Positions 42,366-51,093 of a stretch of 64,000 bases of DNA are shown in pieces; positions within the stretch are counted from its first letter, which is position 1, and every line of letters starts with the position of its first letter. The translations under genes and the position numbers were made by a program. The notes beneath the pieces are model-generated. The model was not told the origin of the DNA. It did not search any database and saw only the letters and a program-made list of their open reading frames with translations. Source of the stretch: an uncultured Actinomycetota bacterium (GTDB lineage: Bacteria; Actinomycetota; Actinomycetes; Streptomycetales; Streptomycetaceae); assembly GCA_963711935.1 (NCBI GenBank), contig CAVQGD010000034.1, positions 72,334 to 136,333 on the forward strand, written 5' to 3'.

Positions 42366-45300
42366 TCAGGTGTCGGTCCAGTTGAGGGTGTGGAGATAGC
42401 TGGGAGCCGGATTGTCTTCGGCCACCGGGTCAGGCATCTCAAGGTCAGGGAAGCCCATGTCAGGGAAGCCCATGTCAGGGAGGCCGCTGTCCAAGGCCAT
42501 GGGGGCGGCCTCCGCCGGGACTGGTTCCGGGTGAGAGGCGGGGTGGCCCAGCACCCCGGCCCGGGTCAGCCGGGCGAAAGCACTGGGGTCCGCCGGGCCG
42601 GCAGGCGGCAGCGTGAAGGATTCCAGCGTCCCCCCGGCGGACACCCGCCACCACGAGCCCGTCCCCCCGGCCACCGGAACCTGGCCGACCGTCACACTGC
42701 CATCGTCCGCCCTCCGCAGGTCCCAGCCGACCGGCGGTTCCCCGCCGTCCCGTGTCGCCAGCCGCGCCTCGCCCCTCTCGTCGTAGTGCACCTGGAGCTC
42801 GGTACCCGGCAGGTCGACTCTCCAGCCCACGGCCTTTCCCCCGAGGACCGTGAGCGTGGTACCCGTACCGAAGACGACATGGAGAAACTGATGAGCCGAT
42901 CCTGTTTCGATGTGCCAGTTCCTGATGTTCTGCGACGTCAGGAAGGCCGCAATGCGCATCCGCCACCGGAAACTCGGAGTCGGTTTTTCCACCTGGCCTG
43001 GCAGTTTATTCCTGTCAAGACCCAGAATTCTCGCCACATCGTGCTGTGTGGTTATGCGGTGGGCCTTCTTTATGGTTTCCAGGGAGTTCTCCCAGGCCCC
43101 CAGGGCCGGTTCGCCCGGGTTGTGGGACCATGCGGAGAGCTGCTGCGAGAGCTGCTGTGCCGGGTCCGGCGCACTGCCGGCCGCCCGCCGGTAGCCGCGC
43201 ACCACCCGCTGGGCGTCGAGTGTCCACTCCCCGTCGCCATGGCGCACCCGCAGGCCACCCTCGTCGGCGCTGACGACCTCGCCGGGGAGACCGGTCTCCC
43301 CGTCGGCGCCCACCAGCCGCGGAGGGCCCTGCGGAGTGTCGAACCGTAGCCGGTGCTCGGTTCCGGGCAGGGCCACCATCCAGTGCGTGAAGGTGCCGTC
43401 GGGCTGGAAGTGAGCGATGCTCCGGCCCCGCCGCACCGCGACGGCGAACCCGTCGCTGCCGGTGGGCACCAGCCGCCAGTCGGCCTCCTCCGCCGGGATC
43501 TTCCGCAGCACACTCAACCGCGGCAGCCAGACGCCCCTGCCGCCTCCCTCGAGTAGCCTCCGCAGTTGCTCAGGGCTGGTCAGCAGGCGTCGTGCCAGCT
43601 CCGTCTTGTTGTTGTCGTTCAGCCGGGTCAGGAGCTCACGGGCAATCTGCTTGGTCCGGTCTCTGCCGGGCACGTCCGCCGCGGCAGGTGGAGCGGGCCG
43701 GTCGGGTGCCGACGGCCCGGCGGGTGCCGACGGCCGGGCACGCTTGCGGGACGGACCGGGCGTCCGGCTGCCTGACCCGGTGTCCGACGGCCGGGGGGAA
43801 GGACGGGCAGGACCGACGCCGAGAGGTGCCCCCGGATGGGCCCCAGGAGAGGTAAGGGGGGCGGGGTGGTCCAGCACCCCGGCCCGGGTCAGCCGGGCGA
43901 AAGCACCGGGGTCCGCCGGGCCGGCAGGCGGCAGCGTGAAGGATTCCAGCGTCCCCCCGGCGGACATCCGCCACCACGGGCCCGTCCCCCCGGCCACCGG
44001 AACCTGGCCGACCGTCACACTGCCATCCTCCCCGCTCCGCAGGTCCCAGCCGACCGGCGGTTCCCCGCCGTCCCGTGTCGCCAGCCGCGCCTCGCCCCTC
44101 TCGTCGTAGTGCACCTGGAGCTCGGTACCCGGCAGGTCAACCCTCCAGCCCCCGACCTTCCCTCCATGGAACGTGAGCGTGGTACCCGTACCGAAGACAA
44201 CACGGAAGGAACGCACATCCTGTCCTGTTTCGATGCGCCAGTTCCTGATGTCCTGCGACGTCAGGAAGGCCGCAATGCGCACCCTCCATTGAAGACCCAG
44301 AGTCTGTTTTTTCACCTGGGCTGCCAGGTTTGTACTGTCAAGACCCAGAATTCTCGCCACATCGTGCCGTGTGGTTATGCGGTGGGCCTTCTTTATGGTT
44401 TCCAGGGAGTTCCTCCAGTCCCCCAGGGCCGGTTCGCCCGGGTCGCGGGACCATGCGGAGAGCTGCTGCGAGAGCTGCTGTGCCGGGTCCGGCGCACTGC
44501 CGGCCGCCCGCCGGTAGCCGCGCACCACCCGCTGGGCGTCGAGTGTCCACTCCCCGTCGCCATGGCGCACCCGCAGGCCACCCCCGTCGGCGCTGACGAC
44601 CTCGCCGGGGAGACCGCTCTCCCCGTCGGCGCCCACCAGCCGCGGAAGGCTCTGCGGAGTGTCGAACCGCAGCCGGTGCCCGGTTCCGGGCAGCGCCATC
44701 ACCCAGTGTGAGAAGGTGCCGTCGGGCCGGAAATGAGCGGTGCTCCCACCCTGCCGCACCGCGACGGCGAACCCCTCGTCACCTGTGGGCACCAGCCGCC
44801 AGTCGGCCTCCACCTCTGCGATCTTCCGCAGCACACTCAACCGCGGCAGCCAGACCTTCTCGTCGCCACCTCCCTTGAGCAACGTCCGCAGTTGCTCAAC
44901 GCTGATCAGCAGGCGCCGCGCCAGCTCCGCCTTGTTGTTGTCGTTCTTGTTGTTGTCGTTCAGCCGGGTCAGGAGCTCATGGGTGCTCTCCTTGGTCCGG
45001 TCCCTGCCGGGCACGTCTGCCGCGGCAGGTGGAGCGGGCCGGCCGGGTGCCGACGACCCGGCGGGTACCGGTGGCCCGGCCCCCTCACCGGCCATGCCGG
45101 GAGTCCGGCTGCCCGAGTCGGCGTCCGGTGCCCCGGCCGGGGCCAGCCGGCTGGGCACCCTGCCCCCCGCCCGGCCGACAGACGGAGGGACAAAGGGAGT
45201 TCGCGTACCCCTCCGTACCGGGTCCAGCAGCCGCCGGGCGACCTCCGCCGCCGCACCCTGCCCGCGCCCGGCGGTCCCGTGCCCGGCGTTCCCGCCACCC

Positions 45301-48300: not shown

Positions 48301-51093
48301 GGCACCCCCCACGAGTACCCCGCGCAGGCCCTGCGGACCGTGCAGGCCGGGCGCACCGTGCAGGCCTCGCTGCCGGGCCAGGTCCCGGGCGGCCTCCACC
48401 CCCTGGGCCCGTCCCTGGTCCGGGCCCCCGTGCGCGTGCAGTTCCTGCGCCACCCGCAGGATCTGCCAGAACTGCTCCGGATCACGCTGCCGCAGCGAGG
48501 CGGCCTGCTCACTGACCGTCAGCGGGAACGGGTTGTACCGCCAGGTGATCCTCGCCGCCTCCGCCCACAACGCCCGCGCCCCGGCCTCGTTCAGCCCGAA
48601 CCATGCCGCGACCTCCCCCAGGCCCTCCGGCGCCGCTTCCCCGGCACCGGTACGCTCTCCGGCCGGAACCCCCGCACCCTGCGCAGCCTCACGCGCCGGC
48701 TGGTCCACAGCCGTGGCGCCGGTGCCGGTGGCGCCAGTGCCGGTGGCGCCGGTCGGAGCAGTACTGGTCCCGGTGGTGTCTGTGCCGGTCTGTGGGGCCG
48801 GGCCGGTGGTGGCGGACGGGGCGGGCGCAGGAGTGCCGGCCGTGACCGGGCCGGCAGCGGTTTCGGTGGCCGTGCCAGTGCGGGGAGCCGTACCGGACCC
48901 AGGGGTCGTGGGGGTGCCGGACCGGGTGTCCGCAGTAGTGCCGGTGGTGGTTTCCGTGCCGGTGGTGGTTTCCGTGCCGGGGGCCTGGGACGGGCGGTCC
49001 TGTGGCTGGGCGGTCTCGGTCGGCCTGGTCCCGGTGAGGCGCTGCTCACGCGGCACCCCCGGCCCGGACGGTCCAGCTTCAGCACGCTGCGACTGCGGCT
49101 GCTGGACGGTGTCCTGTGTCTGCCCATGGGTGGCAGGACGGTTGCCCTCCGTGCGCGGGGCGGCGGTGCCCCCGGCGTTCCCGGACCCGGCCGGGGTTTC
49201 GGTGCGCTGTCCGGGGCCGCCGGTGGGGGACGGCGTCTGCACCTGCTGCGGGTTCGTCCCGCCACCGGACCCGGCCGGCACGGTCCCGGACCCGGTCAGC
49301 ACAGTCCAAGACACCGCCGGGCTCGGGGGGGCGCCGGAGCCGCCACCCTCGCTGACGGTGACGGGCACCGGGCGCACCCCGGCCGGAGCCTGCTCCCGCG
49401 GCACCTGGCCCGGGGCCGAGCCCTGTGTGCCCGGCGTCTGGCCCGGGGCCGTGCTCGACGTGCCCGGGGTGCTCGCCGGCTCCGGAGCGTCGGCCGAACT
49501 GCCCGGACTCGCAGCGGGCGTGGGCGCGGACGCGTGGCGCTGACCGCTGTTCCCGGACGCGACCGGGGCCGTGCCGGGCACGGCCGTGGGAGGGGAGCCG
49601 GGCGCAGCCGTGGGAGCAGGGCCGCTGTCGGTCCTGGGGGTGGTGCCCTCGCCGCCGCCCGGACTCCTCAGCGTGGTCCCGAAACCGGGAAGGCCCCGGG
49701 CCGGGCGGGCCGGCACGGTGCCCGGCACCTCCTCCGCCGGGGACCCGGGCGGCAGCGTCACGGTGCCGCCCGGCTGCGCATGGACCGGCCTCCGGGCGAA
49801 CCGCCCGTCTGGTTCGTCCCGTTCGTCTTGTCGCCGCTCCGTGCGGTCCGTTTGCCGCTCCGTGCGGTCCGTGCCGTTGCCGTCGCCCTGGTGGTTGCCG
49901 GTGCTCCGGTCCGCACCCGGGGCAGGCGGCGTATCCGCCCCGGACACCGGCGCCGTACCCGCACCCGCCCCCGTACCCGAGCCTGTCTGCTGCGTACCGG
50001 AGGCCCCGCCACCGGTGCCCGTGATGCCCGTGGTGGATGCGGGGGCAGGCGGCCCCCCGGACGGAGCGGATGCGGTGCCGGGCGGCCCCTCGGAGGTGGT
50101 GGAGGCGGTGGTGGCCGGCCCGTCGGATCCGGTGGTGGCCGGCCCGTCGGACCCGGTGGCCTGTCCGCTCCCGCCCGGCCTTCCGCCCCCGCCCGGCTGG
50201 TCCAGCAGCGGCGTGGTCTCCAGCTGGGACAGGTCGAAGTCCGCCGGGTCGGGGATCTTCGCATCGAGGGGGTTGACCTTCATTCCCTCCGGCTTCTGCC
50301 ACCGAAAACGCCGCCCGCCCCCGCTGAGCGCCTCGGTCATCCCCGAGGTGAACGCCCCCGCCAGACCCGAACTCCCGCCCAACAGCACATCCTGCACCAC
50401 CGTGGTGACCAGCCCCGTGACCCCACCCGTGGCGAGCTTGCCCACCAGCGAGTTAGCGAACTTCGGCACCACCTTGCCCGCCACCAGGGGGAGCGCCCCA
50501 CCGATCGCCCCACCGATCGCCCCCGCCTTGACCATCCCCAGGGTGTTCTGCACATTCCACCGGGTACGGTCGCCCAGCATCATCTGGAACGTCTGCACCG
50601 CCACATCCATGCCGACCATCAACCCGACACCCGCCACCATGGATATCAGCAGCCGGCGCAGGATCATCCGCACCGCCGCCCGGCCCGCCGCCACAATCGC
50701 GGGCACCACCTGCGGCGCGTACAGGGCGAACTGCGCGATCTCGAACGCCATCCAGGCCAGCTGCACGAGGATCATGTACTTGGCGTACTGCAGCTCCACC
50801 GCCGTGACCCGCGCCAGCCGCGCCAGCTGATCCGCCGACTGCGCCGTCTGCGGCAGGTTCTTCAGGAAGGTCCCCACGAACTCCCGGAACTGCCCCGCCA
50901 CCGGCCCGGCCATGCTCTCCAGCACCCCGCTGACCGAGGGGCCCACCTCACGGCTGATCGCCAGCAGCTCCCCGGCTGCCTCTTCCCAGGCCTCGCTGAG
51001 TTCGCGGAGTTTGTCCTCGTCGCCCTGGGGCCAGTCCTCGCCGACCGCCAGGTAGGCCACCCAGCCCAGCGCCGGGGGAAGAAGGATGCTCAT
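42366..51093 (-). CDS. Giant (~2900 aa) WXG100-like/T7SS-type protein with tandem HTH-like repeat payload; one frameshift near 47948
   Basis: N-terminus GEDWPQGDEDKLRELSEAW, helical and hydrophobic segments, long P/G/T/A linker; the 46495..51093 and 42366..47837 ORFs join at the end of a VPLPG repeat; span 8728 nt (3n+1). Confidence 0.8.
42540..45120 (-). repeat. Two near-identical ~1.25 kb intragenic repeats (offset 1323-1341 bp), with a third diverged copy to about 46480
   Basis: ccagcaccccggccc at 42548 and 43871; gcggcaggtggagcggg at 43681 and 45022. Confidence 0.93.

Follow-up and report, generated by a model that had tools for sequence, protein, structure and literature searches.

An expanded family of giant type VII secretion-type proteins with predicted paired helix-turn-helix modules in a Streptomyces genome

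What might a very large bacterial protein accomplish that begins like a type VII secretion system (T7SS) substrate and ends in a tandem array of modules? The question is raised by a gene on the minus strand of a 64,000-nucleotide stretch of DNA (the window; positions 72,334 to 136,333 of contig CAVQGD010000034.1, assembly GCA_963711935.1) from an uncultured Actinomycetota bacterium whose source genus is Streptomyces. An earlier note, made from the letters alone, had read the payload as non-enzymatic and rich in helix-turn-helix (HTH) motifs. The presence of HTH subdomains gained support and no enzyme domain was detected, and the picture had to be amended, among other points in that the extreme C-terminus is conserved and the gene is not a singleton. 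Judged from profile searches, it belongs to a family of T7SS-type giant proteins that is strain-specific and greatly expanded. On the basis of sequence comparisons and structure predictions we tentatively propose, at somewhat short of an even chance, that these giants are exported or displayed and act by specific binding through their HTH surfaces, with nucleic acid as the most likely ligand, in conflict with other cells.

The argument starts from the C-terminal ~1,400 residues. Self-comparison of the second of the two open reading frames (ORFs) that make up the gene recovered the three repeats of ~440 residues, with two motifs each, that had been noticed at first sight (R1, 458-842; R2, 905-1326; R3, 1352-1767); R2 and R3 are 80% identical, and R1 shares 37-39% identity with either. 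Each repeat consists of two related modules of ~190 residues, its second half aligning with its first, and the six motifs lie at the starts of the six resulting modules, which align over their full length. Typing distinguished 32 a-type and 57 b-type copies. All structural statements on the modules rest on predictions. The AlphaFold2 (AF2) module model, built from a 60-module alignment, reached a predicted local distance difference test score (pLDDT) of 81 and a predicted template modelling score (pTM) of 0.72, and places helices at residues 2-7, 12-21, 26-33 and 39-55 ahead of ten strands and a C-terminal helix; the helical part modelled alone gave a pLDDT of 74.

Several lines of evidence bear on the identity of this helical part. 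The module consensus retains A19 (93%), L22 (100%), G23 (65%) and L29 (77%), which corresponds to the classic Ala5/Gly9/hydrophobic-15 pattern of HTH motifs. Scanned individually, members of the 60-module alignment matched the Pfam families YdaS, HTH_26, Phage_CI_repr, HTH_23 and HTH_31 weakly (19 family-member matches in total), single modules reached E values of 0.0003-0.2 against YdaS, HTH_26, Phage_CI_repr, HTH_31 and others, below the gathering scores, and HTH_26 scored 22.6 bits over the whole ORF (cut-off 22) with no single stretch above the cut-off. Profile-profile alignment by hhalign with an HTH_31 profile from the same genome was in register over helix 2, turn and helix 3 (P 3.9e-5, probability 71%). 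When the helical part was compared with 48,161 solved chains by VIA-align, about half of the top 50 were lambda-repressor-like; the best was the POU-specific domain of Brn-5 (Z 5.1, root-mean-square deviation 2.3 Å over 55 residues), and the list is led by POU-specific, MuB-N, Aca (Aca7), YdaS, CUT, CI, HigA (HigA2), ClgR and ImmR structures, covering 49-58 of the 60 residues at Z 3.3-5.1. Foldseek returned only E>5 for the same part. The only significant profile match to a Protein Data Bank (PDB) entry was to the designed protein 8vd6, which consists of five identical idealised HTH units (E 3e-8); it is counted only as agreement with a generic HTH because its score is the sum of five matches of 6.8 bits. 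These individually weak lines agree with each other and support a lambda-repressor-like HTH fold for the helical part, which is a putative member of that family.

The beta subdomain, by contrast with the HTH part, had no clear structural relative in whole-module comparisons by Foldseek (best, propeller blades with E 5e-3 and a TM-score of ~0.2), by VIA-align (best, PepSY/BLIP-like helix-plus-sheet proteins with Z 6.4) or against the ESM Atlas (TM-scores ≤0.40). Its identification with DUF5753 of the WhiJ-like XRE regulators was considered and rejected: hhalign of the whole module against 54 HTH_31-DUF5753 proteins of the same genome gave a probability of 8%, and no Pfam DUF5753 match was obtained.

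A role for the beta part is suggested by co-folding. An a-type and a b-type module gave a co-fold score of 0.68, compared with 0.31 for the best of three controls; the mark applied is one that 58 of 80 solved complexes attain, as do 2 of 110 mismatched pairs. The runs share at least 73% of their contacts, with a partner pLDDT of at least 74, and the interface is formed by helix 4, the strands of the beta part, the last strand, which pairs across the chains (151-156), and the C-terminal segment; helices 2-3 contribute nothing to it. Modules of the a- and b-type are thus predicted to pair via their beta parts and helix 4 and to leave the HTH helices free, so that each ~440-residue repeat would form a pseudo-dimer with two free HTH units. 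Where the earlier note had listed HTH-like motifs followed by beta-rich segments, the former are supported by profiles, AF2 model and structure list, and the latter acquire a predicted function in joining the two modules of a repeat. The predicted layout is that of a dimeric Cro/CI-type repressor: in these XRE-type regulators, too, an HTH with the Ala/Gly/hydrophobic pattern is followed by a pairing domain, and two HTH units per pair are free. In the giant protein, however, pairing would occur between covalently linked, non-identical modules, the pairing domain is without clear relative, the whole is embedded in a secretion-type protein, and DNA binding is putative.

The HTH part also stands out in its pattern of substitutions. 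In 39 disjoint pairs of close modules (70-97% identical), the ratio of non-synonymous to synonymous change (pN/pS) was 1.64 for helices 1-2, 1.95 for helix 3 plus loop, 1.81 for helix 4 and 1.83 for the whole helical part, as opposed to 0.97 for the beta part and 0.80 for the tail and, in other domains of the same genes, 0.48 for the head, 0.55 for the mid domain and 0.81 for the pre-module domain; codon bias raises these figures in absolute terms and gene conversion blurs them, and the contrast between domains is robust. The latter is significant for the helical versus the beta part (Fisher p 3e-7) and versus the head (p 4e-26), and helix 3 shows a deficit of synonymous changes (binomial p 7e-7). 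In the comparison of R2 with R3, long stretches are devoid of synonymous differences, and a 30-codon window over the HTH of the b-module reaches a pN/pS of 6.6. Among the alignment columns, the exposed positions of helix 3 show the greatest entropy, and the mean net charge is +3.2 for the HTH core and -1.7 for the beta part.

At the opposite end, the N-terminus (DWPQGDEDKLRELSEAW) had been likened to that of WXG100-like/CpnT-like T7SS substrates, and the match to Pfam WXG100_2 confirms this: it scores 74 bits, where the cut-off is 27, and spans positions 11-150 of the 150 in the profile. Hydrophobic helices and a long low-complexity linker, described along with it, were likewise recovered, the former as segments at residues 106-125, 140-168 and 191-209, the latter as a region of ~530 residues of which 62% are Gly, Thr, Pro or Ala (G 0.18, T 0.17, P 0.15, A 0.12). 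T7SS machinery is present in the genome with two EccB matches (PF05108) above cut-off, at C25:424296-425603 and C38:90603-91988. The linker is followed by a helical domain, termed mid, which recurs in paralogues with up to four copies per ORF, and a Gly/Pro linker separates it from a beta-rich domain of ~325 residues, termed pre-module. Outside the WXG100_2 head all Pfam matches are sub-threshold and NCBIfam matches are lacking; repeats, pre-module and mid domain had no counterpart in NCBIfam, PDB sequences or the ESM Atlas, and the statement that nuclease, ADP-ribosyltransferase (ART) and deaminase motifs are missing holds for these and any other enzyme or toxin domain in the Pfam and NCBIfam scans. 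The C-terminus carries the motif PSYLHTLNWTDT, which ends 18 of 18 module-bearing paralogues as well as the homologues P0003, P0004, P0008 and P0011; the 18 gene ends (e.g. window 42369-42404) read PSYL(H/D/Y)T(L/I)NW(T/S/A)D(T/I/L), with or without SPP. Such a strictly conserved extreme C-terminus in a fast-evolving family could be a recognition signal.

How far the family extends was addressed by searching the repeat unit across genomes, as the earlier note had advised. The module profile found 113 matches in 18 giant genes of the same genome, each with 2-11 modules between conserved N- and C-termini. In the 460 other genomes it found no full module, neither among the matches in 60 relatives (55 candidates scored per genome) nor in 400 further Streptomyces genomes (8 candidates scored per genome), and only two weak partial matches restricted to the beta part. 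A pattern scan of 185,579 species genomes yielded no relative, and among 1.84 billion cluster representatives the profile has ~10 true ones, of which several are proteins of this very genome and the others stem from assembly GCA_040612015.1 and one JGI metagenome. The head is similarly multiplied: 23 heads in the genome match residues 1-265 at E≤1e-100, and WXG100_2 has 32 matches (31 above cut-off) compared with 0-7 in each of 60 other Streptomyces. On these sequence searches the giant gene is one of ~25 paralogues, whose loci sum up to ~0.3 Mb or ~5% of the assembly; lineage-specific expansion is seldom as clear as here, and the case is open to genetics. In four soil and root metagenome runs of 2024, numerous short contigs resemble parts of the gene (window 46500-49500) at 85-99%, which indicates that relatives of the family live in root-associated communities.

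Paralogues with the same type of head carry other cargo. One, at C28:198505-203689, has a head identical to that of the giant protein and a Scabin-like ADP-ribosyltransferase; another, the 3,228-codon open frame L038 (C33:267752-277435), contains a complete GT20 (trehalose-6-phosphate synthase-like) domain and four mid domains, which suggests a multi-cargo build with a mid domain ahead of each cargo; several more have thousands of residues without known domain. The occurrence of ART or GT20 behind the same head is in keeping with a common head for delivery and cargo that can be exchanged. In this respect the family resembles the polymorphic toxins, which likewise combine a conserved trafficking head with cargo that differs among paralogues (here HTH-beta arrays, Scabin-like ART, GT20 and segments without known domain), and the related giants P0014 and P0015 from elsewhere in Streptomyces, which combine a T7SS_signal head with several internal Scabin-like domains. 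P0014, P0015 and the C28 protein are multi-cargo giants of the same genus, and beta segments in them weakly match the beta part of the module; however, their enzyme toxins are recognisable and the HTH subdomain is absent, whereas the window protein has no ART or other enzyme domain.

These observations can be combined into a first scenario. The WXG100_2 head and the hydrophobic helices would mediate export or display through the T7SS. The payload would then act through specific binding via the HTH recognition surface and not through catalysis, nucleic acid being the likeliest ligand; each a+b repeat would present two free HTH units held together by the beta parts and helix 4, and positive selection would have diversified the HTH surface among the paralogues, as a conflict with other cells would lead one to expect. 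Both the head and the multi-cargo, giant build are of a known kind (CpnT-like proteins and polymorphic T7SS toxins), while the literature and databases searched yielded no description of the HTH-beta module, its pairing, the C-terminal motif and the expansion, nor of WXG100_2 giants with HTH arrays. Known cargo of T7SS and polymorphic toxins is almost all enzymatic or pore-forming, and here paired HTH arrays take its place. Should nucleic acid indeed be bound by the modules, inside other cells or on them, a novel mode of action would be added to those of secreted bacterial effectors, and the modules would offer single-chain, modular DNA-binding units of natural origin.

Several points speak against this scenario. 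The extreme C-terminus is conserved, unlike that of a polymorphic toxin, and catalysis could be concealed in the pre-module and mid domains, which are unannotated. Taken alone, every line of evidence for the HTH is weak, a Z of 5 lying within chance for small helical domains, and HTH domains also mediate protein contacts. The co-folding used self-built alignments, for which the calibration holds only roughly. Finally, relaxed constraint would likewise give pN/pS values such as those of the beta part (~1) and the pre-module domain (0.8), and synonymous sites are not neutral in a genome of 72% GC. A narrower version of the scenario, in which the giants are T7SS-delivered, non-enzymatic DNA-reading effectors whose single-chain, repressor-like pseudo-dimers carry recognition helices positively selected for different DNA sites in recipient cells, a counterpart of the transcription activator-like (TAL) effectors in microbial conflict, is considered unlikely. 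The likeness to the Xanthomonas proteins is one of analogy: both link tandem modules to secretion and have few exposed variable positions that could set specificity. However, there is no relation in sequence or fold, the secretion system is another one, the modules here are 190 residues long and paired, and delivery as well as DNA binding are hypothetical.

The main rival, possible but fairly unlikely in our judgement, is a surface-displayed recognition or adhesion protein. In this case the N-terminal helices would anchor the protein in the membrane, the long Pro/Thr/Gly linker would span the wall and the HTH-beta pseudo-dimers at the tip would have as ligands proteins, glycans or extracellular DNA present on other cells or the hyphal surface; the variability of helix 3 would serve partner discrimination or antigenic variation and not DNA reading in a target. 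Conserved termini enclosing 2-11 internal modules are the pattern of a surface repeat protein, and the linker, the diversifying selection on an exposed surface and the failure to find a toxin domain or immunity gene would suit this role. The lineage-specific expansion is likewise reminiscent of the mycobacterial PE/PPE proteins, which form a large T7SS-type family whose helical N-terminal domain is conserved and whose remainder is repetitive and variable; their sequences are, however, unrelated, and the present proteins are far larger, with folded modules as repeats in place of Gly-rich low complexity. Against a surface role stands that the diversified surface is the canonical DNA-recognition helix and positively charged, that the whole-module structure matches include no known adhesin fold, and that no cell-wall sorting signal was found beyond the C-terminal motif.

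An enzyme toxin in disguise, in which the pre-module, the mid domain or the beta part of the module is catalytic and the HTH units serve targeting or tethering, appears distinctly unlikely. It draws on the Scabin-like DNA ADP-ribosyltransferases and GT20 carried by same-head paralogues and relatives, and on the ~425 residues (~100 of the mid and ~325 of the pre-module domain) without assigned fold. Yet the database searches with the mid and pre-module domains gave no match in Pfam, NCBIfam, PDB sequences or the atlas, and the invariant positions of the module alignment are mostly hydrophobic residues and glycine, with no conserved polar catalytic set. Nor is an immunity candidate conserved downstream. 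The stop codon (42366-42368) lies 19 bp from a convergent ORF ending at 42346, exactly as had been noted, and the claim that no immunity gene follows can be extended to the family: no conserved downstream gene exists here or in 17 paralogues, and in the 18 module-bearing genes no gene or sequence is conserved beyond ~100 nt past the stop. The 400 nt upstream of the start in 23 paralogues are alike within subgroups only, over the last ~100-150 nt; an ORF for a small helical partner (WXG100/Lap-like) was sought within these 400 nt.

CpnT of Mycobacterium tuberculosis and other T7SS toxins with a WXG100_2 head share with the giant protein the head, the hydrophobic helices and a long chain with C-terminal cargo, in a genome that here also possesses T7SS genes. 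The C-terminal end of CpnT is an NAD+ glycohydrolase, and its immunity factor is encoded adjacently; in contrast, the cargo here consists of six HTH-beta modules and a conserved C-terminal motif without a conserved neighbouring immunity gene. Polymorphic toxins differ accordingly, in that no toxin domain was detected by Pfam or NCBIfam at the extreme C-terminus, where instead the motif common to 18 paralogues is found, and in that the place of an immediately downstream immunity gene is taken by the convergent ORF. A precedent for HTH-type cargo may be seen in the toxin domain 'Tox-HTH', listed without known immunity protein and with the signature RxxY, R, [ST] (Zhang et al. 2012, PMC3482391). 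The module consensus, compared with this published signature only, has no conserved RxxY, its conserved arginines lying in the W-R-x-R of helix 4, and the cargo here is a tandem array with a conserved C-terminal end and not a single C-terminal domain.

It is very unlikely, in our estimate, that the gene and many of its paralogues are neutral pseudogenes left by a duplication burst, with repeats devoid of current function. This possibility arises from the reading frames. The gene is represented by two overlapping minus-strand ORFs in different frames, 46495-51093 and 42366-47837, and a frame break exists, in line with the frameshift mentioned in the earlier note; the ORFs and the profile of GC content at third codon positions (GC3) assign 51093-47947 to frame A and 47945-42366 to frame B, with the coding signal of frame A extending from 51093 to ~47950 and that of frame B from ~47945 to 42366. 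The two ORFs are one gene with one break. A DNA alignment with five intact paralogues of the same genome shows that the window is 2 nt short at CT^AG (47949-47946), and this deficit produces the TAG that ends frame B upstream. The junction ...PGVP-x-x-GVPELAGYRLSWP... lies within a single ORF in ten close paralogues of the same genome, and the homologues P0011 and P0013 have the mid domain (frame A here) in one chain with the downstream parts encoded here in frame B; an example of an intact paralogue is C28:181151-189415. The switch follows directly upon perfect copies of a 15-nt repeat, and the site, together with its equivalents in the paralogues, is a hot spot at which slippage or recombination takes place; the peptide repeat ahead of the pre-module domain varies among paralogues in unit and copy number (GVPLP, PPFPD, LLQDA, LPLPD and others).

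Besides this break, splitting of ~20 of the 25 paralogues into overlapping ORFs and the pN/pS near 1 of the beta part would be in line with decay. However, the same assembly also contains broken essential genes: rpoB is found in at least 9 frame pieces, while dnaE1 is split into 2 and another dnaE into 8, such fragmented genes lying at C23:30490-33807, C26:194642-197814 and C28:171639-174856, whereas secA and uvrA are uninterrupted. Insertions and deletions are thus abundant in the assembly, which probably accounts for its completeness of 79% and makes every frameshift in it suspect; frame breaks appear to be largely errors. Given the fragmented rpoB and dnaE, the break at 47946-47949 is rather likely to be an assembly artefact, and the giant gene is probably intact in the living cell. 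Moreover, GC3 is maintained at 0.85-0.96 in the correct frames over thousands of codons, and values of pN/pS as different as 0.48, 0.97 and 1.83 across domains of the same genes are not expected under neutral decay, the contrast arguing against plain pseudogenes.

A cytoplasmic, non-exported DNA binder, tethered by its helices to the inner face of the membrane and with HTH pseudo-dimers gripping the cell's own or incoming DNA, is quite improbable: the HTH fold, its positive charge and the hydrophobic helices after the N-terminal domain would agree with it, but WXG100_2 is a secretion-associated domain, long Pro/Thr/Gly linkers are typical of extracytoplasmic regions, and the toxin domains on same-head paralogues would be self-harmful in the cytoplasm without immunity.

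Table 1. Coordinates of the giant gene, its parts and the flanking small ORFs in the window.
Feature	Window position	Strand	Basis and remarks
Whole giant gene	42366..51093	-	~2,908 codons as one frame; ORF list, translations, GC3 profile
WXG100_2 (CpnT-N-terminal-like) domain, residues 10-148	50650..51066	-	Pfam PF25547, E 1.6e-20
Hydrophobic, putative membrane helices, residues 106-209	50467..50778	-	Kyte-Doolittle window scan
Low-complexity Gly/Thr/Pro/Ala-rich linker, residues ~260-790	48724..50316	-	Composition and many short tandem repeats
Mid helical domain (~100 aa), residues ~790-890	48424..48723	-	phmmer against ORFs of the same genome
15-nt tandem repeat x3.6, encodes (GVPLP)n	47948..48001	-	Tandem Repeats Finder (TRF) and sequence; immediately upstream of frame break
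Frame break	47946..47949	-	CTAG in window; three-frame translation and alignment with five intact paralogues
Pre-module beta-rich domain, ~325 aa	46968..47945	-	phmmer; conserved in ~12 paralogues
Four short Trp-containing repeats, 99-/102-nt units, motif W..WL.SPARSVNQPG	46630..47005	-	TRF, repeat search, translation
Module R1a (a-type)	45888..46442	-	Hidden Markov model (HMM) envelope, alignments
Module R1b (b-type)	45288..45851	-	HMM envelope, alignment
Module R2a (a-type; AF2-modelled sequence)	44415..44975	-	AF2
Module R2b (b-type; co-fold partner chain)	43848..44408	-	HMM envelope, alignment
Module R3a (a-type)	43095..43637	-	HMM, alignment, typing
Module R3b (b-type)	42513..43085	-	HMM, alignment, typing
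Acidic Pro/Asp/Met-rich tail ending in PSYLHTLNWTDT	42369..42536	-	Translation
Small-ORF pair convergent to giant gene: sA, 76 aa, with sB, 86 aa	41859..42346	+	Downstream copy of ~540-bp direct repeat
Upstream copy of small-ORF pair, ~91% identical	51677..52215	+	Direct repeat

The giant gene is flanked by two direct repeats of ~540 bp, at 41832-42360 and 51677-52215, each with a Cys-containing ORF of 76 residues and an ORF of 86 residues that overlap by ATGA. This pair was considered as immunity or partner genes and rejected as a feature of the family, as it has six genomic copies of which the others are not linked to giant genes. The window also contains a second T7SS-type toxin on the plus strand (31806-36518), composed of a T7SS_signal head, DUF6531, 16 RHS repeats and a Tox-ART-HYD1 tip; the low-GC stretch that follows it at 36.3-39.4 kb may be the site of its immunity gene. 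On the other side of the giant gene, a single plus-strand ORF (52351-54234) combines an ABC-transporter ATPase, a SpoIIE/PP2C phosphatase and HATPase_c_2, and adjoins convergent permease and binding-protein genes.

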